A stretch of 64,000 nucleotides of DNA from a virus, in the IMG/VR virus record IMGVR_UViG_3300029793_000467; one strand, 5' to 3'. Position numbers and translations under genes: made by a program. The notes under the pieces are model-generated. The model did no database searches. It worked only from the letters and a program-made list of their open reading frames with translations, and was not told the origin of the DNA. The stretch's first letter is position 1. Every line of letters begins with the position of its first letter. Positions 32,888-52,771 of the stretch are shown here, in pieces.

Positions 32888-33652
32888 ATGAACGAAGGAA
32901 CCTATGGGCTGGAGACCCTGAAAGCCGACTATCATACGATACTCGGCTACGATATCGGCTATCTCACCGCGGAATCCTATCCGCTGTTCGCACCCTATCG
33001 TGCGAAAACCAAGAACAGTTTCTCCGGTAGAGTACCGAGACTGTTAAGCATAATCATCACCACTCTCATCAACACGCCAAGCCGCGAATGGGATGCGGAA
33101 ACCCGCACGCTCACCATCGGTGACGACTTCTTCTTCCTCGCCAACAAATGCGGGTTGAACAGTGGAGGAGACGGACGCACTACCGTCCGGAACCAGCTTC
33201 TCATGCTCTCGTCAATCCAGTTCACCGGAGCAGACGGAGTCAAAGTCACGCCGGTCGAACACACCGAAATCACCGCCGACAGTCTCACTATCGAGCATCG
33301 GAAAATCACGTTCACGGAACCGTTCGTAAAAATGATGACAAGGAACGTCCGGCAGATGCCGTTGAAGTGTCTGTACCCCAACGCGGGTAGCGCCATAGCG
33401 ATAGACCTGCTCGTATTGGCGGCATTGTATTGTCCGAACGACCATAGGCTCATCATCGAACGGGCAGACCTTCCATCACTGCTTCCAGCAAGCAGGCAAA
33501 GCCTCTCCAAGCAGAATCTTCTAAATAGATTCAAGGAGTTAAACGACAGACAGAACGAGTGGACGTATCGTATAACGAAATACAGCGTGACCATCAGCCC
33601 GTTCGGAGTGTACTCGTCCGAAGACGCTTTGAGATTACGTCGCAGACAATAG
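32888..33652 (+). CDS. hypothetical protein, possible winged-helix DNA-binding / replication-initiator-like
   Basis: 254 aa with an AAGGAG RBS. There is only a weak resemblance to plasmid Rep/RepA-type proteins. Confidence 0.35.
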   Translation: MNEGTYGLETLKADYHTILGYDIGYLTAESYPLFAPYRAKTKNSFSGRVPRLLSIIITTLINTPSREWDAETRTLTIGDDFFFLANKCGLNSGGDGRTTVRNQLLMLSSIQFTGADGVKVTPVEHTEITADSLTIEHRKITFTEPFVKMMTRNVRQMPLKCLYPNAGSAIAIDLLVLAALYCPNDHRLIIERADLPSLLPASRQSLSKQNLLNRFKELNDRQNEWTYRITKYSVTISPFGVYSSEDALRLRRRQ

Positions 33653-33718
33653 TTCGAGTATGAACAGAGGGGAGCCGACCGTAAGGACGACTCCCCTCAA
33701 TGATGTCGGAATGGGAAC

Positions 33719-34441
33719 TCAGATTTTCAGCTCATCGATAACGGAAAGGTCAACACCGTCACCCCAATTATCGACAATCTTGCTCAGGTTCTTACGCATT
33801 CCGGCAGGAGACTGGTCGTCAACCGGACGGCCGAAATTCTTCTCCGGCGCGACCGCGTTCAGCACGGAGAACAGCAGGTTGGTCATATCCTTGCCCTGCG
33901 CGAACACCAACGTCACCTCTGCGGCAATCATGCCCGGCTCGGCTGTAGCCAACCCTTCCAACGCGGACGCGAACTCGGAGATTCGACGTTGGTTCTTCGG
34001 CTCGGTCAATGCGTCCAGCACTGCTTCCGGAGTGCTCTTCTTCGTATCGGTCAACGCCTTGGCGAGAGAAACCACACGCTCGTCATCCAACGATTTGACA
34101 AGAGGAATCAGCTTCTTGCCGAACTGTTCCTCGATGTGCGGCATGGTCTTCTCACGCGGTTTGCGGTTGGAACGGCCCTTACCTTTCCCCTTCGGCTTGT
34201 CTTCGGTTTCAGTGGACTCAGCGTCCACGTTCATGTCCTCACCATCAGCCGGTGCGGACACGTCAGCGACAGGCTCCGAACTCTCCTGATTAAGAGAATC
34301 GGATTCCGTCTGCGACTCCTCGACAGAAGACTGCTCCGGTTCAGCATAATTGTCGGAACCGTAACCATTGTCCTGCTCCGACTGCTGGTTGTTGTTGAAT
34401 CCCCAATTGGTGAAGTCTGGCATCATACCTTCTTTCGTCAT
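33719..34441 (-). CDS. hypothetical protein with acidic N-terminus and KGKGKGR basic patch
   Basis: 240 aa, and the only minus-strand gene in this plus-strand block. Confidence 0.45.
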   Translation of the reverse strand: MTKEGMMPDFTNWGFNNNQQSEQDNGYGSDNYAEPEQSSVEESQTESDSLNQESSEPVADVSAPADGEDMNVDAESTETEDKPKGKGKGRSNRKPREKTMPHIEEQFGKKLIPLVKSLDDERVVSLAKALTDTKKSTPEAVLDALTEPKNQRRISEFASALEGLATAEPGMIAAEVTLVFAQGKDMTNLLFSVLNAVAPEKNFGRPVDDQSPAGMRKNLSKIVDNWGDGVDLSVIDELKI

Positions 34442-34594
34442 ATCCAGAGAACACTCCGGTCGTACAGGCTGTTAACAGTCGGAACGAGGTGTTCTGTATT
34501 TTCAATTCACGAGTGTAACGCCCGACGGCATCCCTAAACGAGGAAAACGGGAAAAAACAATTCCCCGCGCCGCCCGCGCCGGTAGGCCAACATG

Positions 34595-35255
34595 AATAGC
34601 GGATTCAAAAAAAGAAAAGAGGACCAAAACCAAAAAGACAAAAAGATAGAAAACACTCCCCACCAAAAATCAGAAAACAAACACCATCACATCAAAAAGA
34701 AGAACCAAGAAAACCAGAAAGAAAAAAGAAAAAGAAGAACATAAGAGAAATAAGAGAAGACATCCTAAGCAAATAGAAGCAACAGAAGAACAGGACAACA
34801 CCCAGCAACATAATCAGGAAAAGAACAACAGAGAAAAGGACAACAGAAGAAGAAACGCCTACCCCTAAATCGGGAATACAACGTATGAAAACAACAGAGG
34901 CAACGCAACCATCCACAAAAGAACAGCACATCAACCCATATGACATACAGAACAGAAGAACGACATCACCAAACACCCTAAGAAACAAGAAAAGCAACAA
35001 GCCACACCATCACAAGACAAACCGAACATCAGTATCAACACGACGGCACACAACAACCACAGCACAAAACGACAACAGCGAAAAGGTCAATAGTCTCACT
35101 AACAAGGTCAACGACAATCAAAACAAGGTAACATCAATACAGGAACAGCCAATGCAATGAAAAAAAGCAACAGCAGAACCAACAAAAAAACTAAATATCA
35201 AAAAACTATAAATGCCAGAACTCGGACAAAACCGTAAACGTTCCGATGAAAACAA
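34595..35255. other. ~660-bp extremely A-rich, T-depleted non-coding tract
   Basis: The plus strand is almost devoid of T (A >> C > G >> T). Both strands yield only low-complexity ORFs. The tract lies between convergent genes. Confidence 0.6.
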
Positions 35256-35261
35256 CGGAAC

Positions 35262-36476
35262 ATGACCCATCAGGAGGCGGTCTTATTGGAAAAACGAACG
35301 ATTTCCCTGATAATCGGCTCCGGAGGGCTTCTCACAACCATCAAAAAGGCCCTTACGAGAGCCGGAAACATGCGTTGGCAGGTGCCCGCCGCAGACAATA
35401 TTCAAGCACAGGCCGACTATCTGATAAGACATCCGGTGCCCTCCGGGTTCAAAGGAATCATCTTCACCGACAGGGCTGGAAACTGGCTTCCGATAGCCAA
35501 CGCCGGATACATGGTCTACTGGTGCAACACCGGTCAGATACCGGTCGGAGCCATGGGCATGAGCGAACAGATGTTACGCATGAGCGTGGCTGATTTCGCA
35601 CGGACTTATTGGGGAATCCAGCTTGCGGACAAGCGTCTCGTAGTCGATATCCTCCAAAACAAAGTGAAGGAGACTGCGGTTCTCCTACCCATCACATCCA
35701 ACACCGGAGGAGTGGGGAAGACCACGTCCAGCCGACAGTTGGCAGACCGTGCGTCGCAAGCCGGATTGCGTGTTCTACTCATCGACGGGAACATCAGACA
35801 GTCCAGCCAACGTAGTTTTTTCGACCCGAGACAGGACAAGCCATTGCATACGATAGCCGACTGGCGACCGGGCATGCAGGTGCAGGTCGGAGCCAATCGA
35901 GGACGTGACCTTGGGGTTCCATACGACATCTGTTTCGCACCTCCAGCAGGCGTCGGAGTGGACTGGCAGATATACCGTCAGTACATCCAAGCGGCACGCC
36001 GACTGTGGGATTTCGTCGTGCTCGACCTTGACCGAATCAGCGCGGACGATTTGGATGATAGGGAGAATATCGCCAACGGTTTACTGCTTCCATACATTCA
36101 ATCGGGAGACCCTTGTCTGGTTATCGTCAAGGCTGGAAGGCAGACGCAGATAGACGCGTTGAATCTGCTGACGGCCTTGGCTGAGCATCATCTTCCGAAG
36201 GAACTCATCGGCATCAAGGACACTGTTCCGGTCGGACTGCAAGGTTACAGACGGCTCGACTATACGAGATATGGGACGTTTCTCGGAACCGAATATCAGA
36301 CGGTCGAGGCAAGCAACCATATCGCCAACGGTGATGTCAGATGGGATGACCCCGGTCTTGCTTTTGCTAGGGAGAACATTCTTAACTGGGCTTTGCCCGA
36401 CCGTGGTTTCAATCCGGAAAGATTCAATCCGAACGCTAAGAACAGTGAAGGAAAGAAAGGTCGTGGGCGTAAGTGA
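35262..36476 (+). CDS. ParA/MinD/CpaE-like P-loop ATPase with N-terminal extension
   Basis: Deviant Walker A LLPITSNTGGVGKTTSS. 404 aa. Confidence 0.55.
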   Translation: MTHQEAVLLEKRTISLIIGSGGLLTTIKKALTRAGNMRWQVPAADNIQAQADYLIRHPVPSGFKGIIFTDRAGNWLPIANAGYMVYWCNTGQIPVGAMGMSEQMLRMSVADFARTYWGIQLADKRLVVDILQNKVKETAVLLPITSNTGGVGKTTSSRQLADRASQAGLRVLLIDGNIRQSSQRSFFDPRQDKPLHTIADWRPGMQVQVGANRGRDLGVPYDICFAPPAGVGVDWQIYRQYIQAARRLWDFVVLDLDRISADDLDDRENIANGLLLPYIQSGDPCLVIVKAGRQTQIDALNLLTALAEHHLPKELIGIKDTVPVGLQGYRRLDYTRYGTFLGTEYQTVEASNHIANGDVRWDDPGLAFARENILNWALPDRGFNPERFNPNAKNSEGKKGRGRK

Positions 36477-37669
36477 CATTCGATGACCGTTTTCTTTTCG
36501 ACCCGAACGACGAGAATCTTTGGAAGACCGGAAGCATTGCCGACTGGTATAAAGGCAACGACATGTTCGAGATGGAGCATCCCGGATTGTTCGCGCAGAC
36601 CCACCCGTGGTTCGTTGCGAACAAACTGTTCGCGGAGACAATGGTGAAAGCGAACAGCGAACTCGTTTCGAGTATCCTCGGAGCATTGTTCACTTGGAAG
36701 ACATGCACGGTTGACCAACTGCGTGCGGGACTTTCCATCAAAGGCGCTCCCGCTTTCGAGCGTGACGAACCGAACCTGTATGGTGCGATGAACCGTTTAG
36801 GAATCATCAACGTCGGTTTCAGTCAGGCGGAACGATTGTACGGTCAGACCGTGAATCATGTTTGGCTTTCACCGTCGAACAGTCCACGTCTTATCAACCG
36901 TGCGATGAAATTGTACGGGATGGAAAAGTGGATGCGTGAGACGATGGCGGTTTCCTATTACGCGGGGAATCGTTTCCATGTTCGGCATAACACTTATGCG
37001 GCGCACGCGGGATTGATGTTGGCACGCGATTCACGTGTGAAATTTTCATCCGGTGATGGTTGGGGGAAATTCCGTAGCGTTGACCCACAGGCTGTTGCCG
37101 AATCGAAAGTCGGCAAGGCTTGCGCTACCGATGTGGTGACGTTGTGCCGGAACAATGTGTTGGCGGGTATCGAAATCCAAACGTCGAACAGCGAATTGGA
37201 TAAGAAGATGCAGAACTGGGCGAAGATGCTCGCCTACTCTCCGATGAAACGTCGCGGACTCATCTGCGTATGGTTGCAGATACCGAAGGCGAACGAAGGT
37301 TACGAATCGTTCAATGCGGTGATACAACGCACGCAAGGCATGACGGAAATGGTCGTGGGCAATCCGACCGTATCGCAACGAATGGGAGTCGCGGTTTGGG
37401 ATGAATGGTTCGAGCATGGAATTCCAACCGACAGGTTCGGTGAATATACGGACATGAGTGGAACACGGCGCAACATTTTCTCCGACGAGTGGGTGCAATA
37501 CACTCCGCAAGTTCGTGACGTTCGCAAAGTCAGCGAATGGGGTTGGGACGTGACGCGGGACATCATCAAAAAGGATTGGGGTTGGGACGTTTCCGGTTGG
37601 ACGATGCCGGAAGCGTACCGTGGCGGTTTCTACGGTTTCATTGGAAAGGATTGCGATGGTCTCCACTGA
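36473..37669 (+). CDS. hypothetical protein (398 aa), possibly replication-relaxation-like
   Basis: Long ORF coupled to the ATPase. His-rich motif FHVRHNTYAAHAG. Family assignment is uncertain. Confidence 0.4.
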   Translation: MTFDDRFLFDPNDENLWKTGSIADWYKGNDMFEMEHPGLFAQTHPWFVANKLFAETMVKANSELVSSILGALFTWKTCTVDQLRAGLSIKGAPAFERDEPNLYGAMNRLGIINVGFSQAERLYGQTVNHVWLSPSNSPRLINRAMKLYGMEKWMRETMAVSYYAGNRFHVRHNTYAAHAGLMLARDSRVKFSSGDGWGKFRSVDPQAVAESKVGKACATDVVTLCRNNVLAGIEIQTSNSELDKKMQNWAKMLAYSPMKRRGLICVWLQIPKANEGYESFNAVIQRTQGMTEMVVGNPTVSQRMGVAVWDEWFEHGIPTDRFGEYTDMSGTRRNIFSDEWVQYTPQVRDVRKVSEWGWDVTRDIIKKDWGWDVSGWTMPEAYRGGFYGFIGKDCDGLH

Positions 37670-38096
37670 GGAATCATTCCAACAGACACAGGACGCGTTG
37701 GATGTAGCAAGATTGGAACGTGCGCGGGCTTTGCAACAGGTTCAGACATTATGTGAGACGGGACGTAGACATTTGGTCATTCCGTTTCTGATGGCGAACA
37801 TGCAACGTGTTCCCGCATTACGGAAGATACGACTCTGGCAGTTGGATTCGATAATGTTCAACACTTCCCGGCGGATTGCGAACAAAACAATCCGCGTCAT
37901 GCGTGAAACCATCAACGATGATTCGAGTGTGAACGATGGTTACGTGACATTGGGTTGGGCGTTGGAGTCGAAGGAGAAAACCGTCCGGATGACGACGTGG
38001 CTTCTCCAATTGTCGTTACGTGAGAGGCTTTCCACTTTCCAGAAGCCGGAAGGTTTCCCATACGCGCAGTTGTATCAGCAGAGCACGGATGATTAA
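37620..38096 (+). CDS. hypothetical protein
   Basis: ORF. The start may be at MVSTEES. Confidence 0.35.
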   Translation: MAVSTVSLERIAMVSTEESFQQTQDALDVARLERARALQQVQTLCETGRRHLVIPFLMANMQRVPALRKIRLWQLDSIMFNTSRRIANKTIRVMRETINDDSSVNDGYVTLGWALESKEKTVRMTTWLLQLSLRERLSTFQKPEGFPYAQLYQQSTDD

Positions 38097-38121
38097 ACAA
38101 AAAAGGAAAGGAAGGTAAAAC

Positions 38122-40782
38122 ATGGGTAATCCGAACTGGTATCAGATAACCAGAACGTTGCAACAGTTAGACCCGGACGAGCAACGTTCGAAAGTGGAGA
38201 GCATTCCCGCCGAACTGGATGGTTGCACCCTTCTCCTCATCAAGAAGGGCGAGGAGCCGGTCAAGGAATATATTTACGGCGACGGCGAGGGAATCGTCAA
38301 CGCCGGACAGTTGGCTGGTTTTGACGCGAGACTGGTCGAAGGTGATGAGGAACCGGTGTTGCCGGATGGCGTGAACAGTGCGGCGCATCCTCTCATCCCG
38401 TTCCGTGCCCGGTTGAACTCGAAAAGCAACATGGAGAAAATGCGGACGAACTATTCCGGCGTTCGTACAAGCATCGAGAAGGTCATGCCGCCGGACAGTT
38501 ATGTGAGCGTCACGCTTCGCAATCAGGGATACTTCGAGCAGATTCGTATTCGTAATTGGATTAGCGACGAATACAATGCGGTCGAGGATTCAAGCGAACT
38601 TGCTTCGACCAACACGATGTGCGCCCGTGTGAGTTTCGGTTGCCGTCAGGTTTCGCGTAACCGACAGCTTGCGCAGAAGATTGGTCAAATCATCTGCCCG
38701 CTCATATCCAACATGTCCAGTCATGCGAGCCGTCCGAAATTCGGTTTGCTGTTCGTCAGCATGCTGTTGGAAGTGTTGTCCGTGATTTGGAGTGTGTGCG
38801 GTCTTGCAAGAGGATACGTGATGGATGGCGTGTTCCCATTGTTCCATTCCGCTTGGGGTTTCGGAATCGCGCTTCCACTGCTTGCGGTGACGTTGGTCGT
38901 GTTCCTGTTCCTCATGCTGTTGTCGTGCATTCCGTTCGTTTACATTCCGCGACCTCAGATTGCTGGTGGAGCGGTGGCGCTCATGCTTTACCTGCTGTTG
39001 GGGTTGCTTCCGCTTCCGACGTTCATTCCGATTCTTTTCGTTCCGCTTCTTGTCTTCGCGTTCATCCGTTGGAAGAATTGGACGTTGTGGGATGATATTT
39101 TCCAAACGCCACGCAGATATTATGCGATTGCGAACGACCGTGGCGCGAACGAGTCCGATAATCAGACCCGTCTTGGCGTGCGCACTCATAAGGAGCGCGT
39201 GTCGGCTTATGGTGCGCAACGTACCACGTTGATTCTTTCCCCGATTATCGTAAGTTCCGTGTTCACTCCGGTCACTCAGGGAGTGGCGATGAAACAGGAG
39301 TTGCATCCGGTTCCGGAAGTATTGTCGCATGATGGCATCTTCCTTGGGAAGGATGATACGGGACGTAACTGTTATCTCGACCCGTCGCAATTGTTCGGCG
39401 GTATCGCCATCAACGGCGAGGCCGGTTCCGGTAAGACCGTGCTCACCCATGGCATCAGCCAGTGGGCCATCAGCGCACGCGAGACCACCAGTCCGAAAAT
39501 CTGGGGACGCGACTCCCGTATCATCCATTTTTGGATGAAGGATGATACCGGTGTTAACGTGTTGGAACGTTATCGCAAACGTCACGGTTTCACCAGTCCG
39601 CAACGCGTCGTCTATTTGGCAGACCCGAACAGTGTGTGCTTGGACATGCTTGGCATGAAGGACGGGAACAATGCGATGGAGACTGCGGCGAGCGTGGCGA
39701 AGACCATGCGTTACTCGTTCGATGACGGTGATATTCTGAACGACTCGCAGAACATCATCACCCAAGCGTTGACCATCGGCGTGGCGGTTGACCGTTACGT
39801 GCAGGAGGAGCGTAAGCATAATCCCGAATCCGCGAACAAGGATTGGGAAAGCGAGATTGTGAAACGTTGCCATCAGCTCGAACAATCGTATCCGGGTGCG
39901 GAACAGTTGCGAATGCAGTTGAGTCCAATCGGATGGGCCGTCGTCGCATTATGCGGTTCCGACGGTCAGGCCGGTTCCGCGAAAGCGTTGGGTCATGTGT
40001 GCCGCGCGTTGAGCATGGAATTGAAGAGTGGCTACATGTTCGAGGAGATGACGTATGCCGCCCGTGCCGCCGAGCAATTATATGGCCGTCCGGACGCGGC
40101 TGGTCATACGGTTCGTTCCGACCGTGACATTCTCGCCAAGACGAACGCCTCGTTGAACAAGGTGAACCAGTTCCTTCCCATCGAACACATGTTCACGGCA
40201 CGTCGCGGCAAGGTGACTTGGACGAACATTCTCGACCATGCTGGCGATTATCACATTGTGCTCGCACCGCATAATGGTTATTCGTTGCCGGAACGTATGG
40301 ATAAGATTCTCGGCGGCTGGCTCATGTACCGTTTCTGGAATACGGTGTTCGCGCATTGCAAGGATTGGGACAAGGCTGGCAAGTGGACGATGCTCGTATG
40401 CGACGAGTTGAGCCTGTTGGCTAACGGCAATGACGGTATCATGCCCGCGTTGCGTGAGCAGGGTCGTTCGTTCGGTCTTCTTCTCGTGTTCGCCACCCAG
40501 TATCCGACCCAGTTGTCCGACGCGATGTTGGATTCGTTCATCGGCTATTCGACGTTCATCACATACAATACGACGATTCCGCGTATTGCCGATATGACGG
40601 CGAAACGTTTGACGAACAATGATGGTGAGGATGGTTGGCGTTCGGGCGCGGTGATGAATCTTCCACGTTATGCGGCGGCTGTTCGCACTCGAACCCAAGA
40701 ACAGTTGCAACCGACGTTCCTTGTTCATGTGAACGATTTCGATAACGGTTATCGCAATGGTGACATGGATGATGATGACTAG
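38122..40782 (+). CDS. membrane-anchored P-loop NTPase, type IV secretion ATPase-like (VirD4/VirB4/FtsK superfamily)
   Basis: 886 aa. 4-5 TM helices at residues ~230-340, then Walker A GEAGSGKT and Walker B MLVCDELS. Confidence 0.55.
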   Translation: MGNPNWYQITRTLQQLDPDEQRSKVESIPAELDGCTLLLIKKGEEPVKEYIYGDGEGIVNAGQLAGFDARLVEGDEEPVLPDGVNSAAHPLIPFRARLNSKSNMEKMRTNYSGVRTSIEKVMPPDSYVSVTLRNQGYFEQIRIRNWISDEYNAVEDSSELASTNTMCARVSFGCRQVSRNRQLAQKIGQIICPLISNMSSHASRPKFGLLFVSMLLEVLSVIWSVCGLARGYVMDGVFPLFHSAWGFGIALPLLAVTLVVFLFLMLLSCIPFVYIPRPQIAGGAVALMLYLLLGLLPLPTFIPILFVPLLVFAFIRWKNWTLWDDIFQTPRRYYAIANDRGANESDNQTRLGVRTHKERVSAYGAQRTTLILSPIIVSSVFTPVTQGVAMKQELHPVPEVLSHDGIFLGKDDTGRNCYLDPSQLFGGIAINGEAGSGKTVLTHGISQWAISARETTSPKIWGRDSRIIHFWMKDDTGVNVLERYRKRHGFTSPQRVVYLADPNSVCLDMLGMKDGNNAMETAASVAKTMRYSFDDGDILNDSQNIITQALTIGVAVDRYVQEERKHNPESANKDWESEIVKRCHQLEQSYPGAEQLRMQLSPIGWAVVALCGSDGQAGSAKALGHVCRALSMELKSGYMFEEMTYAARAAEQLYGRPDAAGHTVRSDRDILAKTNASLNKVNQFLPIEHMFTARRGKVTWTNILDHAGDYHIVLAPHNGYSLPERMDKILGGWLMYRFWNTVFAHCKDWDKAGKWTMLVCDELSLLANGNDGIMPALREQGRSFGLLLVFATQYPTQLSDAMLDSFIGYSTFITYNTTIPRIADMTAKRLTNNDGEDGWRSGAVMNLPRYAAAVRTRTQEQLQPTFLVHVNDFDNGYRNGDMDDDD

Positions 40783-40812
40783 TTTTTAGCGTTCATCATA
40801 TCGCTTTTCAGA

Positions 40813-40851
40813 ATCCGTTCGGAACTTTCAACTTCCGGACGGATTTTTTTA
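40813..40851 (+). terminator. rho-independent terminator
   Basis: ATCCGTTCGGAA..TTCCGGACGGAT stem followed by T7. Confidence 0.65.
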
Positions 40852-40948
40852 ACCTAAAAACCTCGCTATGACTGGAAACAACCGCGTAGGTTGATAGGAT
40901 GAAAAATGCAGGAGAGTTCCGTTTGGAAAACGAAAGGGAACTCAAAAA

Positions 40949-41293
40949 ATGGGTGGAACCATTACCTTGGCTGGAAGCAGCCTTGAGAGCACCTATCATA
41001 AGATGTTCGACACCATTTTGAGCAGTAGCGCGGGAACCGTGTTGACCAACATCGGTCTTGCCGCCGCAGTGCTTCTCGCATTCGGCCTTATCGTCGGTGG
41101 CATTTGCAAGGCGTTGGGACGTCAGAACAAAGTCGTGCAGATGTTCTGCCCGACCATCGGTCGTGTTCTCGTCGTCCTCGCAGTCGGATTCATTCTCGCT
41201 GGCCCGACCGTCACCATTCCGGCAATTCTTAAGTTGATTGACTGGTTCGTTGACGCGTTTGGCAGCAGTGGAAAGACCTATCTGGGAATCTGA
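40949..41293 (+). CDS. small polytopic membrane protein (pilin/VirB2-like candidate)
   Basis: 114 aa with two long hydrophobic helices. Flanked by strong terminators. Confidence 0.4.
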   Translation: MGGTITLAGSSLESTYHKMFDTILSSSAGTVLTNIGLAAAVLLAFGLIVGGICKALGRQNKVVQMFCPTIGRVLVVLAVGFILAGPTVTIPAILKLIDWFVDAFGSSGKTYLGI

Positions 41294-41306
41294 CATCCGC
41301 AGAAGG

Positions 41307-41369
41307 AAAACCGGAGTGGATATGCGAAGAGGACCTTTCCGGTTCTGTTCCCACTCCGGTTTTCTTTTA
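41307..41369 (+). terminator. terminator/attenuator-like hairpin
   Basis: 13-bp stem AAAACCGGAGTGG/CCACTCCGGTTTT followed by CTTTT. Confidence 0.45.
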
Positions 41370-41398
41370 AGAACCTTACGTACGAAAAGAGTTGAATC

Positions 41399-41821
41399 AT
41401 GAGCGATGAGGAAGACGAAGGATACAAAGGTCCCTTGCATCCGAGGTTGACGATGGACGACATCACGGAAGTGTCCGGCCCGGAGGAAATCGAACGGAAG
41501 AACACGTTCCAGATAACCAAGAACACTGAGGCCCGTTCCAAAACCGTGTTCTCCGTTATCGTCGGCGCATTGGCGGGCTTGGCTCTTTGCCTCATATTCG
41601 CCCCGTTGCTCGGATACATGTTCAGCTCGTTCTTCGTACTGTTGGGCGGAATACTGGCTCCGTTCTTCGCAGTCGGCACCATTAGAGACCGCACCCAACA
41701 GACACGGTGGAAGAGAACCTTGCAGGATATGAAGAGCCGCAAGATTGAAGGGCAGGTCTTCTACCCGAATTCCACTCAGCCGGAAAACATTATCGACCTT
41801 CAAGAAATGGAAATCCGTTGA
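41399..41821 (+). CDS. membrane protein (140 aa, 2 TM)
   Basis: ORF with hydrophobic helices. Confidence 0.4.
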   Translation: MSDEEDEGYKGPLHPRLTMDDITEVSGPEEIERKNTFQITKNTEARSKTVFSVIVGALAGLALCLIFAPLLGYMFSSFFVLLGGILAPFFAVGTIRDRTQQTRWKRTLQDMKSRKIEGQVFYPNSTQPENIIDLQEMEIR

Positions 41822-44800
41822 ATACAAAATATCGAGACCCAGTGAAACGGGCGGGTAGAAGGAACCTGCTCGTCATTCTGATGTTGTGCGTGGTCATGAC
41901 ATTGTTCGTCTTGCCGTCCAGCGTGTTCGCCGCACAGGTCAACGATTCGACCACGACGATAACATGCGCCAACGGTGGAACTGACAGTGCTACATCAGAC
42001 ATCTCTAGTTGTCTTCCTTCCGGACGTTGGGGAAACTACGTTGGGGAAATCACTTCGCGTACGGAACCGTACAGTGGCAGCGATGTCGCCGGTTGGTTCT
42101 CGAACGTCAAGCAGACCATCAGCTCGCAGACCCATATCGTCCTTCCCAACATTCTGATGCAGTTGACTCAGGTCTGCTGGTCTTCCGCATTGTCCATCAG
42201 CCAGTTCGCCGCTTCGTTCGAGCCAATGAAACAGGCTGGTGCGAACATCGACTCCGCAGTGTCCACCATGGTGACAAGTCTGATGGACGGCGGCATCCCC
42301 GCCACCATCGCAGTGCTCGGCATCGTGGCTTGGGTTGGCGCGGCTGGATTCCAAATCGGCACCGTCAAAGAGGCGAGCAAACGAATCGTCATCATGGTTC
42401 TCTGCTTCGCTTCAATCACGATGCTTGGAGCTGGAGCGGCCAAGACCGGGAAGAACGCCACAGAACCGGCGACCGGAAGCCCATGGTGGGTCGTGCAGAC
42501 AATCAACAACACCATCAACAAGCTTTCGGTCAACCTCGACCTTGACGGTATGGCCGACAGTGATAAAAACATGATGTCCTACCATCATGCGGCGAACGGT
42601 GCGAAAACCAATTGTCAGGATTACCTGTACTTCATGCATCAGGCATATGACGAACAGGCGAAGTCCAACGGCAATCAGGATACAAGCAACGTCACCAAGG
42701 CCATCAACCGTATTTGGGAGGAGACCTCCCTTCGCTCGTTCGTGACCATGCAGTACGGAAACCCGCAGACCACCGGAACATCCTCGTTCCGTATCGCGGA
42801 AAACGCCCGGCAAGGTTACTGCCACGTGTTGGAGATGAAAGCCAACACGAACACGACCATCCAGAAGGATTTGACCAACAAGGCCATGGCGTTGCACATC
42901 AGCGACCAGCGAGCCAAATGGCTGTTCTCCGTGGACGGTTGGGTAGACCCGCGTAATCCTTACTTCACCGACAAGCCGTTGGAAAGGGAGAACGCGACAT
43001 ATCTCAGCCGTGCGGGCGTGTTCTGGGAAACCTGTGGCACGAAACGCAATCAGGAAATCTACGCGCGAGCCGGATGGGCGACACTCATCAACAATCTCGG
43101 TGACACAGGAACCAAGAACATCAAGAACGGCAGTACGAAAGTACGCGTCAAAATTGACGACTTGGACAATGTGAAACCGGCCAACGGTGGCAAAGGCGTG
43201 ATGGACGCGAAACAGAACGGCAGCGAAGACGAAACCATCCAACAGACCACTTCGGTCTGCCAGACGATTCTCAAACAGGGTTCCGTAATCTTCTCCCGTT
43301 CCACCGATATCAACAAGGAGGATGACGGAACATATAAAGACCAGCAGAACGACACCAACTGGGGCGACTCCGCCACGGTCGGATGGCGTTTCGACGTGCC
43401 GAACGTTTCCGGAACTTGGAGTGAGGCGAATCTTCGTGACGCTCAGGATGATTCCACGGTCACGGGCGGTGCGAAGAAAACCATCGACTACATGTATGGC
43501 AACAACAACGTCGATACGTTGGGTGCTTGCGGAACACTTATCGGAGGCATCGTCAATCTCGTGGTCTGGGGATTGTTGAGCCTTGTTCTAATACTGACGA
43601 AGCTCATGCTGATAATGATGGCGTTGTTCCTCGTGGTCACGTTCCTTGTCCAAGCGTTCCCGATTGGCGAGAAGCCGAAGACGGCGTTGAAGAACTGGGC
43701 GACGTACACCTGCCAGTTGAGTATGGTAGGAGCGTTGTACGGTGCGCTCGGCGCTCTCGCAACATTCATTTGTGGCCTGACGTTGAAGTTCACCTCTGCC
43801 AGCAGTGGTTCGTTCACCTACCAGTTGATTGCGGGATTGAGTCCGGTGTTGGCTCTCGCCGCAATCGGCATGTTCTGTTCGAAAGTGTTGAAGTGTGGTA
43901 ATCCGTTCAGCGTCAACGCTCTCATGGGAATGGCGGGTGGAACCGCAATGGCGTCCGGTCTTCGCAAGGGAATGCACATGATTGGACAGTACCGTATGAT
44001 TCGCGCCATGCGTGGCGGATTCCGTCGTGGCGGCAATGGTGTCGGACGTTTGTCCACGAACGGTACCGGCGCTGGCATGGCCCATAACGGAGCACGTCAA
44101 AGCGCGACCGTCCTGAGCAAGATGAGCCGCGCGCAACAGGATTCGTTGAGTCAGGGCGATAGGAATCTGATGAATCGTAACGCCAAGGAGTTCGAGGCGA
44201 TTCAGACGCGTGGACGCGGAAGCAAGAACTGGGCACGAATGGACAAGAGCACGGTGAGAGGAAGTCTTGCCGGTACGAAACTCCATTTTGAGGATTCCAC
44301 GGGCAAGTTCAAGGGACGGTTGAACGAAGCCGTTTCCAAGTTCCATGGAGAGGACAATACGGAGGCGTTCGCCCATAGTATCGCTCAACGTCACCCGGGC
44401 ATGTCCCTCAACGATGTGCAACGCAAAGCACAAAGGATGAACCATCTGAACAATGCCGGACGCAAACTTCAAGGCGCGGCAAGAGTCGCCGGAGCCGGAG
44501 CCGCAATGGCCGGTGCCGGTCTCGCTTTCGCCGCACGAGCCGCGAAGAGCGCTCCTTTGCGTAACGTAGCCGCACGCGGAGCGAAGGTCGCCGCGAAAGC
44601 CGCTGTCGCAGGAGCTTTGTTCTCCAATCCGATTACCGCACCGTTGGGATTGATTGCCGCAGGAAAGCTAGCTACCGACCGTAACCTCCATCATGGCCTA
44701 GCGGTGGGTGCGGGAGCTGCGATGGACAAAATCCGCGACATCAGGAACGCTGCTCCCGGCAGTATGAGGAAACGCGACCAGTGGCGTCGCGACGTGTTGG

Positions 44801-45849
44801 GCATGGCTAATGGTGACGCTCCGTTGTCGTCTCCGTTCTCCGGCACCGGTGACGGTGGTTCCGCCGATGGTGACAGTCCTATGCCTTCCCCGACGGCTCC
44901 GACTCCGAATGCCCCGACCCAACCCGGTGGTGTCGGTGGCGCGTCTCCGCTTCCGACTGACGGTCAGACCGAGACGATTCCGACTGACGGTCAGACGGAA
45001 ACGATTCCGGTGGACACTCCAACTGAATCGGTTCCAGCCGACGCTCAAGGACAGGCTCCGGTGTTGACTGAACAGTCCGCGTTCAATCAGGTTCGTGAGG
45101 GAATGATGGCCGACTTCGTGGATAACCAGCACATGTCTCAAGAGGATGCGGAACAGGCTTTCCAAGAAGCCGTGGCCTCCGGTGAAGTCGATGATTCTGT
45201 CCAAGCGTATATGAGCCAAAACAATCAATCTCCTATCGAGAATGTGACGGCTCAACCTGAGATGAATGCCAATCAGCCGGTGTACAACACTGAGACAGGT
45301 GAGATTGTTGGTGAGACCCTACCCTCCGGAACGATGGACGCCGCCGTGTCCTCCGCCTCCACTTGGCAGAAGGCAACCGACAATGCGACTCCGATGCCTG
45401 AATCGGTGAACAATTCACTGCAACAGGCGTACATGCGCGAGAATCCGGTACAGCAGTCTCCGGAGGAGCATTTGCGGATGGCGCAGGAGGAGTGGACTAG
45501 GACGACTGGTCTTCCGAGCGATATGATGCCTGCGAGTGCGGAACGTGCCATGAATCCGAATGGAATTCAGCCGAGTAGAAAATTCACGGTTGATTCCGGT
45601 CGGACGCAACAGCAGGGTTCGGTACAGGCGCAAGCTCCGCGACAGCAGTCTCAACCGCAGCCACAAGCTCAGGTGAGGCAGCAGCCGTCGGTTCGAATGC
45701 AACCGCCAACCACACCGTCACCGACCGTCAAACAGCCAGTGGACGCCAACCCGTCAAACCTGACAGGTTTCCCCTCCGTAGGCAATCTTCACATGAAGAA
45801 ACCGCCGACCGGAGGACAGCCGACACCCAAACCGCCGTTCATGAAGTGA
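41818..45849 (+). CDS. giant polytopic membrane protein (1343 aa) with Ala-rich and Pro/Gln-rich C-terminal tail; VirB6/TrbL-like candidate
   Basis: Signal/TM segment at the N-terminus, a cluster of TM helices at ~560-700, and PT/Q-rich low complexity at the C-terminus. Confidence 0.5.
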   Translation: MNTKYRDPVKRAGRRNLLVILMLCVVMTLFVLPSSVFAAQVNDSTTTITCANGGTDSATSDISSCLPSGRWGNYVGEITSRTEPYSGSDVAGWFSNVKQTISSQTHIVLPNILMQLTQVCWSSALSISQFAASFEPMKQAGANIDSAVSTMVTSLMDGGIPATIAVLGIVAWVGAAGFQIGTVKEASKRIVIMVLCFASITMLGAGAAKTGKNATEPATGSPWWVVQTINNTINKLSVNLDLDGMADSDKNMMSYHHAANGAKTNCQDYLYFMHQAYDEQAKSNGNQDTSNVTKAINRIWEETSLRSFVTMQYGNPQTTGTSSFRIAENARQGYCHVLEMKANTNTTIQKDLTNKAMALHISDQRAKWLFSVDGWVDPRNPYFTDKPLERENATYLSRAGVFWETCGTKRNQEIYARAGWATLINNLGDTGTKNIKNGSTKVRVKIDDLDNVKPANGGKGVMDAKQNGSEDETIQQTTSVCQTILKQGSVIFSRSTDINKEDDGTYKDQQNDTNWGDSATVGWRFDVPNVSGTWSEANLRDAQDDSTVTGGAKKTIDYMYGNNNVDTLGACGTLIGGIVNLVVWGLLSLVLILTKLMLIMMALFLVVTFLVQAFPIGEKPKTALKNWATYTCQLSMVGALYGALGALATFICGLTLKFTSASSGSFTYQLIAGLSPVLALAAIGMFCSKVLKCGNPFSVNALMGMAGGTAMASGLRKGMHMIGQYRMIRAMRGGFRRGGNGVGRLSTNGTGAGMAHNGARQSATVLSKMSRAQQDSLSQGDRNLMNRNAKEFEAIQTRGRGSKNWARMDKSTVRGSLAGTKLHFEDSTGKFKGRLNEAVSKFHGEDNTEAFAHSIAQRHPGMSLNDVQRKAQRMNHLNNAGRKLQGAARVAGAGAAMAGAGLAFAARAAKSAPLRNVAARGAKVAAKAAVAGALFSNPITAPLGLIAAGKLATDRNLHHGLAVGAGAAMDKIRDIRNAAPGSMRKRDQWRRDVLGMANGDAPLSSPFSGTGDGGSADGDSPMPSPTAPTPNAPTQPGGVGGASPLPTDGQTETIPTDGQTETIPVDTPTESVPADAQGQAPVLTEQSAFNQVREGMMADFVDNQHMSQEDAEQAFQEAVASGEVDDSVQAYMSQNNQSPIENVTAQPEMNANQPVYNTETGEIVGETLPSGTMDAAVSSASTWQKATDNATPMPESVNNSLQQAYMRENPVQQSPEEHLRMAQEEWTRTTGLPSDMMPASAERAMNPNGIQPSRKFTVDSGRTQQQGSVQAQAPRQQSQPQPQAQVRQQPSVRMQPPTTPSPTVKQPVDANPSNLTGFPSVGNLHMKKPPTGGQPTPKPPFMK

Positions 45850-45864
45850 CGTCGGTTTGACCAT

Positions 45865-45909
45865 CCGGCGTCGAATGTTTTGAGCATCTTCCACAGCATT
45901 CGACGCCGG
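45865..45909 (+). terminator. hairpin terminator
   Basis: Perfect 13-bp stem CCGGCGTCGAATG/CATTCGACGCCGG. Confidence 0.45.
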
Positions 45910-45951
45910 TTCCCCTTTCGAAAAAACTTCCAACGTCAAGGAGATTAGAAA

Positions 45952-46305
45952 ATGGAAGAGGTAGGAAACCAAGCCGCTGACACTGCGGGACGAACGTTGG
46001 GTGACGTGCTCACCGTGTTCTTCTCTTGGGTGTTCACGCCGACGGGCGCAATCCTCACTTTGTTGATGATTATTATTTGCGCCGGTAGTGTCGTGTTCGC
46101 AATCTTGCAGAAAAGCACCCGCGCGTTGATGACCGCGTTGACCATCTGCGCGTTCCTGTTGTTCGTGTGGATTATCACCGGTGTCTTGGAGGTCATGGGT
46201 TTGCCCGTGCGTGAATGGATGAAGGATATCGCGGCCCAGATGCCTGATATCGGTTCACTGTTCATGGAGTTCCTTCGCAAACTGGTGTTCACAGCCACCG
46301 AATGA
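45952..46305 (+). CDS. membrane protein (117 aa)
   Basis: Three hydrophobic helices. Confidence 0.45.
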   Translation: MEEVGNQAADTAGRTLGDVLTVFFSWVFTPTGAILTLLMIIICAGSVVFAILQKSTRALMTALTICAFLLFVWIITGVLEVMGLPVREWMKDIAAQMPDIGSLFMEFLRKLVFTATE

Positions 46306-46542
46306 TTTTTGTTCGGCTATAAAAACGAAAGAAGGCCGTATCCGTTTCATCGCGGACGCGGCTTTCTGTTTTTCTGTTCCGCCTGTAAACTTGTACGCCG
46401 TTCAACTGTTTTACTGGAATGTTTCTCCGAACGGTTTTCTGGTTCGGCGTGCCGACTTTTCGCCGTTGTTATCATCGAAACAAAAAGACATACCCCCACC
46501 ATGATTCCGTCCACACCGGAAACGAAAAAAGGAAACCAGAAC

Positions 46543-47205
46543 ATGAGAGTCAAAAACCATACGGTCATCATCACCGTCGCAATCATCAAAGGCGGTTCAG
46601 GAAAAACAACCACATCAATGGCATTGGCCGAACTATTGCACAAACGCGGGGAACAAGTCACAGTCTTGGACTCCGACAACACGGGCGGCGCGACCATGTG
46701 GGAAATGTACGTCGAACAGGAAAACCGCAGACGCAGACAGGACAATCCGGACGCGGAACCATACACGCTCGGATTCCCTGTAGTGCAAACCAACGAAGCC
46801 GTATTGAACAATCCGGAACTCATCCGCGAAAAATATTCAGGCTGGGTCATCATCGACACCCCACCGTCCGACGCCGGAGTGGTGCAGGCGGCGATAAACG
46901 CGGGCGACGTGGTGATAATCCCATGCCAGCCATCCGTATCCGATTTGACCCACGCGGGACGCACATACGCGGCGGCACGCAACGGCATCGTCCTGTTGAC
47001 ACGCGTGAAGCCGAGAACGAAACTCGCCCGGAACAGCATCAGCGAACTGGATGAGGAAGGCATCGCACGGTTCGAAACCGTCATCACGGAACGTGAAGCC
47101 GTCAAGAACATGTACGGCACGACGGAAATCGACAACAAGGAGTATTCCAGCGTCGTGCAGGAACTCATCGACTATCTGTCTGAAATCAATCTGGTGGAAG
47201 AATAA
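46543..47205 (+). CDS. parA: ParA-family partition ATPase
   Basis: Walker A IKGGSGKTTT. 220 aa. AAGGAAAC RBS. Confidence 0.8.
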   Translation: MRVKNHTVIITVAIIKGGSGKTTTSMALAELLHKRGEQVTVLDSDNTGGATMWEMYVEQENRRRRQDNPDAEPYTLGFPVVQTNEAVLNNPELIREKYSGWVIIDTPPSDAGVVQAAINAGDVVIIPCQPSVSDLTHAGRTYAAARNGIVLLTRVKPRTKLARNSISELDEEGIARFETVITEREAVKNMYGTTEIDNKEYSSVVQELIDYLSEINLVEE

Positions 47206-47235
47206 AAACAGGAGCAGGGGAGTAAGTAGGCAATC

Positions 47236-47691
47236 ATGGTCAAGAACATCAAACGCAACGCTTTCGCAACCGGAATGCAGGACAAGCGTGACATGCGCCC
47301 ATTGGAATCACCGGAAAACATTAGCGAACCGAACACGGAGCAGGAACCGACACAGGCCGTTCCTGAAACGCGGGAACCGTCAGACCAGTCAGTCCAAACG
47401 TCCGCCGACATGCATGCCCAAACGCTCACGGAGGAAGAAGCCGACCGTCGGGCACGGCTCATCACCGACATAACCCATCCTGAAACACCGGCACCATCCG
47501 AAACGCATCAGCCGCCGAAAGAGAAAAGAATCGGCAGCAACGTCACCGTCGAAAACTGGCGTGCGTGGAAGATGAGAAGCATCGAATACGGGACGAAGCA
47601 GGCTGTATTGTTGAATGCCGCGATGGATTACTGCTTCCAGCAGGGGCACTTCGACCAGTCGCTCATCGACAAGTATGAGCAGAAGGATTAG
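47236..47691 (+). CDS. putative centromere-binding partition protein (ParG/RHH-like C-terminus)
   Basis: Lies immediately downstream of parA. The N-terminus is disordered and the C-terminal ~45 aa are RHH-like. Confidence 0.4.
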   Translation: MVKNIKRNAFATGMQDKRDMRPLESPENISEPNTEQEPTQAVPETREPSDQSVQTSADMHAQTLTEEEADRRARLITDITHPETPAPSETHQPPKEKRIGSNVTVENWRAWKMRSIEYGTKQAVLLNAAMDYCFQQGHFDQSLIDKYEQKD

Positions 47692-47714
47692 GCTCCGGTA
47701 TACTAATTTTCGGA

Positions 47715-47745
47715 TGAACAAAAAGACTTCATCGAAGTCTTCCAG
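47715..47745. terminator. bidirectional hairpin (AAGACTTC/GAAGTCTT)
   Basis: 8-bp palindromic stem with a T-run on the minus strand. Sits between the convergent par and rep genes. Confidence 0.4.
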
Positions 47746-47799
47746 ATGGGGCGGCACTCACAACAGAGCGTACGTCCCATTGGTTTTTCTAAAACACAT

Positions 47800-48669
47800 T
47801 CAGGATACGAACGGGTTCATCGGCTCTTCATCATCTGCCCCACCCGCGTCCGTGTCGGCATCATCGTTACCCGACTGGATGGAAGGGAGACTGGGGCGGA
47901 CTATGACGCCGGTTTCCGTGATTTCGACTTTCAATTCCGGCCATGCGAGCTGAATCTTCTCCAACGCTCTTCTGAACTTGCGTCTGAATTCACGCATCGG
48001 ATACCCGTCATACTTGAACTGCATCAACAGAGCTTCCCATGTTACGCGGGTTTCACGTCGGGCACCGTTCGCGCGGAACGCGAGCCACTGGTAGATGTCC
48101 AAGGCGAGGGCGTCACTGCGAAGCCGACGGACGATGTACGGGTTGAGTGGCACGCAGTTCTCGGTCAGCAGCGCCCACATCTGGGGAGAGAATTCTATGA
48201 ACGACTTCTTGTTTTCGTCGGTCCCGTAGTTGAGCGCCACGGTGTTGGCGACAAAGAACGAGTGGGCTATGAATCCGTCTGCTGACCAGTTTTGGAGGAT
48301 GATGGAAGTGGTGGCTAGGTTCTTAACCATTTTCATCACATTATTCTTGTTCGACCCGGAATATTTGATTCCGACGCTATTGCAGAACGAGTTATACGTG
48401 TCGTCCAAGTAGACGGTATGATGCTCCACGTCCACGCAGTCGCTCCCGTTCTTGATAAGAGAGCGAATGTGGAGGAGGAACATTCTGGGGGCCGCACCAT
48501 AAGCCCATTCCCCGTTGGAGGCTGAGACGGTGATTGACGAGTTCCCGTTCGTCTTCCTAACGGATGGCGAGTCCGGTTTCGACTGTGGCAGGAAGCTCAG
48601 CTTTGACATCACGGACGGGGCGTAGCGGTATGCGTTTGACTTGTCGAGGTCTTTGCTATCATAGGTCAT
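47800..48669 (-). CDS. plasmid replication initiator-like protein (Rep)
   Basis: 289 aa. Adjacent to the iteron array. The C-terminal region looks like a winged helix. Confidence 0.5.
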   Translation of the reverse strand: MTYDSKDLDKSNAYRYAPSVMSKLSFLPQSKPDSPSVRKTNGNSSITVSASNGEWAYGAAPRMFLLHIRSLIKNGSDCVDVEHHTVYLDDTYNSFCNSVGIKYSGSNKNNVMKMVKNLATTSIILQNWSADGFIAHSFFVANTVALNYGTDENKKSFIEFSPQMWALLTENCVPLNPYIVRRLRSDALALDIYQWLAFRANGARRETRVTWEALLMQFKYDGYPMREFRRKFRRALEKIQLAWPELKVEITETGVIVRPSLPSIQSGNDDADTDAGGADDEEPMNPFVS

Positions 48670-48849
48670 GTGACCACAGTTCCTTAAGGTTGATGGTTGC
48701 CGTTACCCCGGCTGGTTCCGCAGCGCGGGGTTTTCTTTTCTCTGATTCTAGTTAGAACTTTCGACCTCTCCACTGTTGCAGTCAACCTCTTCGGGCACGC
48801 GTGAGAAGGTGCCGCTATAGGTGGGTTATTCTGGCACGCCCTGCATAAA

Positions 48850-48979
48850 AAGTTGGAACTTCTGACACGGAAAGTTGGAACTTCTGACACGCTAAGTGGG
48901 CACTTCTGACACGGAAGTTGGAACTTTCGACACGGAAAGTTGGAACTTCTGACACGGAAAGTTGGAACTTCTGACACGC
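48850..48979. repeat. iteron array: 6 x ~22-bp direct repeats AAGTTGGAACTTCTGACACGG
   Basis: Four perfect and two degenerate copies at 22-bp phasing, upstream of the rep gene. Confidence 0.8.
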
Positions 48980-48989
48980 TTTCGACCTG

Positions 48990-49190
48990 AAACGCCTACT
49001 CCCATAAGGGATTTCGACACCTGCAAAAGGTATACAAAAGATTACAAAATATTAATAACCCTTGTATTCCCTTCTTTTTTCAAAAAACAAGTTTTTTTAA
49101 AAAGAAGCAAAAAATCAAAAACAGAATAAACCCATTTTTTAGATTTCATGTTTTGAAGAGATTGAACCCTGCTTAAAGGTCATCCTCAAT
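48990..49190. other. AT-rich region (candidate DNA-unwinding element of oriV)
   Basis: Strongly AT-rich (runs of A/T such as TTTTTTCAAAAAACAAGTTTTTTTAAAAAG) in an otherwise GC-rich sequence, adjacent to the iterons. Confidence 0.5.
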
Positions 49191-49402
49191 GCTTTTTTCG
49201 CTTCCCTGATTCGAACGTTTGAACAGGTCTAATCCTTTTGTGGAAGAGAGAAAAAAGAAAAGTTCCGGAAAAAGAAAAACAGAGAAGCCAGTACCACCGG
49301 TGGATGCATGCTGAAAACCCCGAAGCCGATATAGGAAACCTCGGACGGAAGGTAGACTTGAAGACAGTGCATGACAAACGGAAATGAATTCGGAGCGGAA
49401 CT

Positions 49403-52689: not shown

Positions 52690-52731
52690 GAAAGAATTTT
52701 TCCTGCAACCTTCCTTGTTTGCGAAAAACTA

Positions 52732-52760: not shown

Positions 52761-52771
52761 AAGGTTCCTTT

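Follow-up and report, generated by a model that had tools for sequence, protein, structure and literature searches.

The 64,000-nucleotide (nt) stretch of viral-catalogue DNA analyzed here, referred to as the window (IMG/VR virus record IMGVR_UViG_3300029793_000467), carries on its plus strand, at positions 35262 to 46305, a block of eight tightly packed collinear genes followed by a ParA partition pair. This cluster is, with high confidence, a conjugation module. The fuller reading, which we consider probable, is that it constitutes the DNA-processing, coupling, and inner-membrane-channel module of a type IV conjugation system on a megaplasmid of the pMP7017 family. What is new here is an unannotated 398-amino-acid (aa) protein, which we put forward as a candidate relaxase family common to actinobacterial megaplasmids.

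The reading is anchored in pMP7017, a 190-kb conjugative megaplasmid of Bifidobacterium breve for which both B. breve and B. longum are reported as recipients (PMC10832533, PMC4908950). In tblastn comparisons, 13 open reading frames (ORFs) of the window (32888-51884), all block genes included, matched pMP7017 from 54743 to 36341 with their order kept and with 30 to 66% identity. The eight block genes and the ParA gene have the same order and orientation as in pMP7017 (31 to 66% aa identity), and the whole nine-gene block is also collinear in a relative of 67% GC (L149; 32 to 48% identity). The 886-aa protein was found over its full length, at 59% identity, in pMP7017 and five B. longum megaplasmids. 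Among the pMP7017 orthologues are B7017_RS00300 (ParA-like ATPase), B7017_RS00295 (nuclease; 399 aa), B7017_RS00285 (coupling protein), and B7017_RS00270 (VirB6-like protein). The original prediction, made from this DNA without database searches, had proposed machinery resembling a type IV secretion system (T4SS); collinearity with a conjugative plasmid, a TrwB-like ATPase, and a plausible VirB6-like protein bear this out. Conjugation was already known for this plasmid family, of which the cluster is a new, divergent, and as a whole ordinary member. That prediction had listed five consecutive genes, and all five ORFs lie where it placed them, but the block has eight: it missed the 146- to 158-aa and 140-aa genes and did not describe the 117-aa gene. 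Gene calls on independently assembled copies of this element contain all eight. The features of the region are as follows.

34442-35261: non-coding region of 820 nt, divergent from the minus-strand gene at 33719-34441.
35262-36476, plus strand: ParA/MinD-superfamily P-loop ATPase, 404 aa (396 or 368 aa in other calls).
36473-37669, plus strand: winged-helix and PD-(D/E)xK protein, 398 aa, overlapping the preceding stop codon.
37656-38096, plus strand: soluble protein, 146 aa (158 aa from the earliest GTG, at 37620).
38122-40782, plus strand: VirD4/TrwB-type coupling protein, 886 aa.
40810-40847, plus strand: 15-bp hairpin and then a T-run, terminator-like, 3′ of the coupling-protein gene.
40949-41293, plus strand: membrane protein, 114 aa, with two hydrophobic segments.
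41302-41368, plus strand: long hairpin with a T-rich 3′ arm, terminator- or attenuator-like, 3′ of the 114-aa gene.
41399-41821, plus strand: membrane protein, 140 aa.
41842-45849, plus strand: polytopic protein of ~1335 aa, with its start at ~41842 (1343 aa from a TTG at 41818).
45865-45909, plus strand: 15-bp hairpin 3′ of the large gene (fold of 45840-45960, -36.8 kcal/mol, z -2.8).
45952-46305, plus strand: membrane protein, 117 aa, with two or three transmembrane (TM) segments; final gene of the conserved block.
46543-47205, plus strand: ParA, 220 aa (NCBIfam ParA_partition, E 7.7e-31; Pfam AAA_31, CbiA, MipZ, and VirC1).
47236-47691, plus strand: 151-aa partner of ParA.

The last two genes serve plasmid maintenance rather than transfer. 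The pair stays linked to the block in relatives, being collinear in both pMP7017 and L149.

In the 886-aa protein, a soluble stretch of about 200 residues precedes a hydrophobic bundle (~205-320). Hydropathy peaks at 207-225, 249-267, and 295-313 and helices at 207-318 in an AlphaFold2 (AF2) model indicate an N-terminal TM anchor. Walker A (GEAGSGKT) and Walker B (LVCDELS), the motifs of its FtsK/HerA-superfamily nucleotide-binding domain, are invariant over 18 homologues, in keeping with the TM bundle and following Walker A/B domain noticed originally. In the AF2 model, for which these 18 homologues were the input (predicted local distance difference test [pLDDT] score, 81.5), nine helices (518-691) are inserted between the core strands; they would correspond to the all-alpha domain of VirD4-type coupling proteins, a domain that FtsK and TcpA lack. 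The model is closest in structure to TrwB, with a match covering 365 of 420 residues, compared with 240 aligned residues for FtsK and 224 for TcpA. On account of the inserted helices and the membrane anchor, the modeled structure shows a membrane-anchored type IV coupling protein of the VirD4/TrwB type. The protein had been described as coupling-protein, VirB4, or FtsK-like; the first of these is retained, and an FtsK/TcpA-type translocase was rejected on the TrwB-like structural match.

At the level of sequence families, the 886-aa protein matched neither Pfam T4SS-DNA_transf (PF02534) nor TraG-D_C (PF12696) nor any NCBIfam family, and the Arthrobacter homologue gave a TraG-D_C match below the cut-off (E 0.0032; 17.8 bits against 22). 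The C-terminal 500 residues are 25 to 27% identical to Arthrobacter and Curtobacterium megaplasmid proteins, which are annotated as T4SS conjugative DNA-transfer proteins. PDB sequence and profile searches with the nuclease and the coupling protein returned nothing useful (best, HerA at E 0.22), and a scan of GTDB genomes with the alignment of the coupling protein gave no confirmed match.

Pfam, NCBIfam, PHROG, and PADLOC models all failed to match the 398-aa protein, as did PDB sequences, and RefSeq annotates the corresponding pMP7017 gene as "hypothetical." The AF2 model of the protein (pLDDT 85.5) shows a winged-helix DNA-binding domain joined to a PD-(D/E)xK nuclease fold. Invariant residues are D220 before a strand, E234-x-Q236 in the next strand, and K245 in the following helix, with invariant H172 and D195 upstream of D220; in the model, D220, E234, and K245 sit at the positions expected for a PD-(D/E)xK site. 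A word-indexed search recovered only ~25 clusters, all of the bifidobacterial type, while an exhaustive profile search recovered 275 cluster representatives at E ≤ 1e-3, mostly of 430 to 600 aa, that share RHN, E/D, D, E, and K motifs. The bifidobacterial and distant subfamilies are homologous (hhalign probability, 99.9%). None of the 50 family members tested belongs to a Pfam or NCBIfam family.

Across Actinomycetota megaplasmids, the genes for the nuclease and the coupling protein show tight linkage. In PLSDB, the same 16 plasmids carry homologues of both, and the two genes are adjacent in 16/16, in three orders. The coupling-protein gene precedes the nuclease gene in Arthrobacter, Pseudarthrobacter, Paenarthrobacter, Curtobacterium, Glaciihabitans, and Euzebya, and the order in Bifidobacterium is nuclease, small gene, coupling protein. 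MOB-suite types all 16 plasmids as non-mobilizable; thus, no known relaxase was recognized on them. One known class of relaxases offers a parallel. MOB_C relaxases (TraX of pAD1 and MobC of CloDF13) are related to PD-(D/E)xK restriction endonucleases, have an active site confirmed by mutagenesis, and bind at direct repeats distant from nic, and a covalent DNA intermediate has never been observed for them (PMC12857230). On pTEF1, which MOB-suite types as MOBC, a "replication-relaxation family" gene lies two genes from the coupling-protein gene. With permissive hhalign settings, the H, E, D, E-x-(E/T), and K motifs of the nuclease family and TraX fall in the same order, an alignment that is suggestive only.

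By analogy with these enzymes, the 398-aa protein is a candidate for a non-HUH, MOB_C-like relaxase, an assignment that we hold tentatively, at nearly even confidence. A broader proposal stands somewhat further short of even: that this protein and its ~275 relatives are an unrecognized relaxase family with a MOB_C-like mechanism, outside current profiles, that would drive transfer of an Actinomycetota megaplasmid class including the pMP7017 family and plasmids of the six further genera named above. The original prediction had recognized no relaxase, which is probably wrong, the 398-aa protein being the best candidate. In the literature found on the pMP7017 family, which does not include Bottacini 2015, no transfer-initiating enzyme is named and no such relaxase is proposed; the 2024 re-annotation table of pMP7017 does not include the block genes.

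The genes on either side of the nuclease gene may supply its helpers. The 404-aa product of the first gene carries the motif NTGGVGKTT and matches CbiA (E 4.9e-7) and AAA_31 (E 3.7e-6) in Pfam and a ParA-like PHROG (E 9e-10), all NCBIfam matches being far under their cut-offs. It has an extra N-terminal domain of ~135 aa and is 57% identical to the product of the pMP7017 "CobQ" gene. The "CpaE/ParA-like" label given to it originally is thus upheld as a weak match to the ParA/MinD-superfamily P-loop ATPases. Its gene lies directly 5′ of the nuclease gene in L149 and in a further relative, L150, and we propose that it is an accessory ATPase of the DNA-processing complex. The 146-aa protein is 56% identical to its pMP7017 counterpart, had no Pfam, NCBIfam, or PHROG match, and is possibly a relaxosome accessory factor. 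In L150, a ~4.8-kb cassette (11748-15320) lies between the nuclease gene and the 146-aa and coupling-protein genes; the pair of ParA-like and nuclease genes and the pair of small and coupling-protein genes are each intact around it, so that the 146-aa gene is directly 5′ of the coupling-protein gene even there. The cassette encodes SecE, SecG, an ADP-ribosylglycohydrolase, and WhiB; pMP7017 also has plasmid-borne secE and secG.

A CpaE/TadZ-like ATPase and a small pilin could also belong to a Tad/Flp-type pilus locus. The 404-aa protein does have a weak CpaE_hom_Actino/Ssd match (E 5.4e-6; 25.8 bits against a cut-off of 154), and a small protein with two TM segments is flanked by terminators, but no TadA/CpaF (T2SSE), TadB/C (T2SSF), prepilin peptidase, or Flp family was matched in the block or its larger neighbors, the large ATPase is TrwB-like, and the block lies in the backbone of a conjugative plasmid family. 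We regard this alternative, which the original prediction had itself raised as a Tad pilus alone, as exceedingly unlikely. Its description of the 114-aa protein as pilin-like depended only on size and two hydrophobic segments and is dropped here.

Beyond the coupling-protein gene, the block encodes membrane proteins. Hydropathy marks the large protein as polytopic; its eight peaks, which overlap in part, comprise an N-terminal segment and TM clusters at ~150-210 and ~565-690. Together with a variable, low-complexity tail rich in PQ and Ala, these two TM clusters agree with the earlier description of a 1343-aa polytopic protein. The maximal ORF overlaps the stop codon of the 140-aa gene, and in independent assemblies the gene starts 8 codons later (~41842), giving ~1335 aa; near-identical relatives have 1326 to 1337 aa. 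Over residues 8-956, the protein is 48% identical to its pMP7017 orthologue. Pfam TrbL (PF04610) did not match the window protein at E ≤ 0.01 and gave sub-threshold matches to the pMP7017 orthologue (E 0.0056) and to the Arthrobacter homologue (E 0.0014; cut-off, 25.9 bits), both on the second TM cluster. With moderate confidence, the large protein is probably VirB6/TrbL-like.

Three small proteins accompany it. The 114-aa protein (TM segments 35-53 and 73-91; 65% identical to its pMP7017 counterpart) had no Pfam, NCBIfam, or PHROG family match and is predicted to be a small membrane subunit, which may belong to the channel or be an abundant surface component. The 140-aa protein has a TM segment at 50-68 and is 66% identical to its counterpart, and the 117-aa protein, whose gene is also present in L149, is 58% identical. 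On an Arthrobacter megaplasmid, the 1043-aa homologue of the large protein is preceded by genes for 110 and 149 aa, the latter overlapping it by 4 nt. BLASTP of the 114-aa and 140-aa proteins against these same-position Arthrobacter genes gave no similarity, and no relatives of the small membrane proteins were detected outside the plasmid family.

Every T4SS so far described has VirB4 as its signature subunit (PMC12857230). In pMP7017, the locus at 84.8 to 89.5 kb, ~35 kb from the coupling-protein gene, has genes for a VirB4-like ATPase (AAA_10), a protein of 247 aa, and a Phage_lysozyme2-CHAP hydrolase; in L150, the gene of a VirB4 homologue is 8 kb away from the ParA-like and nuclease pair. 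Relative to its relatives, pMP7017 carries an inversion at 84,894-128,826 (supplement of the pMP7017 paper), and the window passes from a homologue of the exonuclease at 82 kb of pMP7017 straight to a homologue of the RNA ligase at 127 kb. From this synteny and the reported inversion, we infer that the VirB4 locus should lie off the left end of the window, at a distance of some tens of kilobases. The original prediction had suggested a divergent or minimal transfer system, and a complete, minimal or divergent stand-alone Gram-positive T4SS without VirB4, VirB1, and VirB8 would indeed fit a window in which no VirB4, hydrolase, or VirB8 homologue was found. We consider it improbable, given that every described T4SS has VirB4, that relatives of this element encode VirB4 at a second locus, with the hydrolase in conjugative pMP7017, and that synteny would place the VirB4 locus left of the window. 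Since relatives keep VirB4 and the hydrolase at a separate locus, the cluster, judged by its sequence context, is one module of a split system and not a minimal one.

In B. longum-type relatives, the VirB4 homologue is itself split by ~1.65 kb (L139, 2611-4092 and 5740-6936; also L116, L131, L147, L134, L103, and L114). The N-terminal part is 85% and the C-terminal part 60% identical to pMP7017 VirB4; an insertion, an intein or intron, or a recombinant gene could be the cause.

The stretch of non-coding DNA upstream of this block (34442-35261) is a candidate promoter and leader and, by position, the best candidate for the origin of transfer (oriT). Within it, a ~650-nt tract (34590-35245) is 53% A and 8% T on the plus strand, and nowhere else in the window does T fall below 8%; the counterpart in pMP7017 is similar, with 45% A and 13% T. 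The pMP7017 region that corresponds to 34442-35261 as a whole is 52654-53033. The tract varies in length among relatives that are 96 to 99% identical, with an alignment break at 34611-34803. A group of pMP7017 promoters has a 34-bp motif overlapping the -10 box (PMC10832533); this motif is absent upstream of the cluster. A single copy lies elsewhere in the window, at 21485-21508 on the minus strand (3 mismatches; 0 expected by chance), which suggests a plasmid-specific regulon motif common to pMP7017 and this distant relative.

The two strong hairpins bracketing the 114-aa gene, claimed as terminators in the original prediction, were confirmed as stable structures. The first (40810-40847) folds at -20.8 kcal/mol (z -4.4) and the second (41302-41368) at -39.5 kcal/mol (z -5.65); for each, 0 of 200 shuffled sequences were as stable. 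Both have a T-rich stretch at or after the end, and a simple terminator scan missed both. They are not conserved around the pMP7017 counterpart (z about 0; 3′ gap of 37 nt there), which makes them lineage-specific.

A working model for the conjugation module can be drawn from these parts. The nuclease would bind and nick oriT, probably in the upstream non-coding region, working in the manner of MOB_C relaxases such as TraX of pAD1 and without HUH chemistry, and the ParA-like ATPase and the 146-aa protein would assist it. The coupling protein would then take the nucleoprotein complex and feed the DNA into a channel whose subunits are the giant, polytopic VirB6-like protein along with the three small membrane proteins. 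Powering and opening this channel would fall to two proteins encoded at the other locus outside the window, a VirB4 ATPase and a cell-wall hydrolase of the lysozyme/CHAP type.

Several results weigh against this model or parts of it. Among the block proteins, only the ParA-like ATPase reaches any curated family threshold in Pfam or NCBIfam, and the VirB6 assignment depends on sub-threshold matches. No oriT was identified. The 64-kb window has no homologue of pMP7017 VirB4 or of its lysozyme/CHAP hydrolase, and IMG/VR searches for VirB4 on this plasmid type (with a single VirB4, a VirB4 alignment, and a degenerate Walker-B DNA pattern) recovered only pMP7017-type contigs. The homology between the nuclease and MOB_C is without statistical support. 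A TraX-family profile was built, and Replic_Relax (PF13814), which as a positive control matched 23 of the 27 TraX-family members, matched 0/70 nuclease family members (0/20 and 0/50). Against the TraX profile, the nuclease family gave an hhalign probability of 33.6% and a pairwise E of 4.4e-4, over the winged helix only; because only this motif aligns significantly, the family falls outside formal MOB_C membership. Finally, the PD-(D/E)xK fold is common, and the 398-aa protein could act in some other DNA transaction.

The main rival explanation keeps the cluster in conjugation and denies the 398-aa nuclease the part of relaxase. The nuclease would then have an accessory or unrelated function, for example in DNA end-processing, plasmid resolution, entry exclusion, or anti-restriction, and either an unrecognized relaxase would be encoded elsewhere on the plasmid or double-stranded DNA would be transferred by an FtsK-like motor, as with Streptomyces TraB. 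Besides the missing significance of the MOB_C homology, this explanation can draw on the very large FtsK/SpoIIIE-domain proteins encoded by pMP7017 and the Arthrobacter plasmids, which likewise count against the model above, and on the fact that even MOB_C has no observed covalent DNA intermediate (PMC12857230). Set against this are the adjacency of the nuclease and coupling-protein genes on all 16 plasmids despite the change of order, the absence of any other relaxase on them according to MOB-suite, and a coupling protein that is TrwB-like rather than FtsK/TcpA-like, proteins of the former kind accompanying relaxase-processed DNA (PMC12857230). In addition, no methyltransferase partner was seen beside the nuclease gene. 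We treat this alternative as a serious contender, though one well short of even probability. A defense-system reading of the nuclease was rejected, as no defense-system model matched (PADLOC).

The element that carries the cluster was traced through its relatives. The window is 96 to 99% identical to contigs of 216 to 232 kb from ENA, NCBI, and IMG/VR, and the 398-aa protein is indexed in 1103 blocks of a public assembly collection, with contigs reaching about 230 kb. Full-length contigs of this type include JAKNII010000004.1 (GCA_022133115.1; 226,114 bp) and IMGVR_UViG_3300029653_000083. These near-identical contigs and the many assembly blocks indicate that the window is part of a common gut megaplasmid of ~226 kb, a distant relative of pMP7017. 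The block had zero DNA-level megablast matches among PLSDB plasmids, and scans of the window for Rfam families and tRNAs found nothing. Membership of the pMP7017 family is defined by a homologue of the verified replicase RepB (B7017_p0146) and by iterons (PMC10832533), and pMP7017 replicates in the plasmid mode with this iteron-binding RepB (PMC8313286). None of the window ORFs matched RepB (pMP7017 119397-120542); the window covers 64 of ~226 kb, and RepB may lie outside it. A 289-aa RepA_C-like protein of the window matches only the other RepA of pMP7017 (96.2-97.3 kb), at 35% identity.

That the element is a phage or phage-plasmid, with the cluster serving virion DNA packaging or injection, is highly improbable. 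Although the 886-aa protein or one related to it is encoded at 52 IMG/VR loci (contigs ≤217 kb) and the plasmid family has phage-like genes (tail lysozyme, DnaB, single-stranded DNA-binding protein, and tRNA arrays; PMC10832533), none of the block proteins matched a structural or packaging family of PHROGs, the block had zero megablast matches among 50,697 phage records, pMP7017 replicates as a plasmid (PMC8313286) and conjugates, and ParA and RepA genes adjoin the block. The megaplasmid type is listed as viral in IMG/VR (L017-L036, L058, and L063; contigs ≤217 kb).

Other parts of the window were also annotated. Beside the partition genes, 47792-48995 is a variable cassette with the RepA_C-like gene (47800-48669, minus strand). 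Relatives L007 and L021, otherwise 96 to 98% identical to the window, diverge there, and L007 has the RepA_C gene on the opposite strand. An SPFH/Band-7 (flotillin-like) protein (23691-25070, minus strand) is 25% identical over 481 aa to one of Arthrobacter (L010, 7818-9293), whose gene lies near the VirB6-like gene together with NfeD. Cargo genes encode a TnpB/IS605-type protein (11866-13314), a GmrSD_C nuclease-domain protein (50859-51884), an N6/N4 DNA methyltransferase (54650-55606), and a putative adhesin of 647 aa (60522-62465; pAdhesive_15 and Listeria-Bacteroides repeats).

Apart from the pMP7017-type megaplasmids, no self-transmissible plasmids are known in bifidobacteria. With no transfer-initiating enzyme named in the literature found and with the candidate gene annotated as "hypothetical," plasmid-typing software scores them, and similar soil actinobacterial megaplasmids, as non-mobilizable. 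If the relaxase proposal is true, it would add a new relaxase family to MOB typing schemes, correct estimates of plasmid mobility for Actinomycetota, and provide oriT and relaxase parts for mobilizable bifidobacterial vectors. The hypothesis is directly testable, since conjugation assays for pMP7017 already exist.

Compared with known VirD4/TrwB proteins (R388 TrwB, Legionella DotL, and Helicobacter Cag-beta), the 886-aa protein has an extra soluble N-terminal domain of ~200 aa and four or five TM helices, whereas VirD4/TrwB proteins have two; its sequence identity to TrwB is 12%. The nuclease family resembles MOB_C in having an N-terminal winged helix and then a PD-(D/E)xK-type nuclease domain, in a gene near the coupling-protein gene, and in its conserved H, E/D, D, E, and K residues, which have the same order and similar spacing. 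The helix motifs are similar (LGALxSWRxxTxxQL in the nuclease family and LLHELRIxTxxQL in MOB_C), but the nuclease family proteins are 398 to 600 aa long, compared with ~260 aa. Like VirB6/TrbL, the large protein is polytopic and encoded with small membrane proteins near the coupling-protein gene; at ~1335 aa it is much larger, with a ~350-aa loop between the TM clusters and a ~650-aa tail.

The megaplasmids of Micrococcales and Euzebya (such as Pseudarthrobacter chlorophenolicus A6 NC_011879 and Arthrobacter sp. zg-Y1110 NZ_CP104273) have in common with this element the coupling protein and adjacent nuclease, a VirB6-like giant after two small genes, flotillin, and CHAP hydrolases. They differ in that identity is only 22 to 27%, the nuclease gene is downstream and not upstream of the coupling-protein gene, and the channel genes are ~100 kb from the coupling-protein gene. 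The closest known system is the pMP7017 type itself, including the B. longum megaplasmids, all of which are likewise without a MOB-suite-recognized relaxase. This element differs from pMP7017 in GC content (52.9% versus 57.4%) and size (~226 kb versus 190 kb), shows no DNA-level similarity to it by megablast, has strong hairpins insulating the 114-aa gene only in its own lineage, and has a RepA-like gene that adjoins the partition genes. In both, DnaB lies on the same flank of the conserved block and GmrSD-like genes on the opposite flank.

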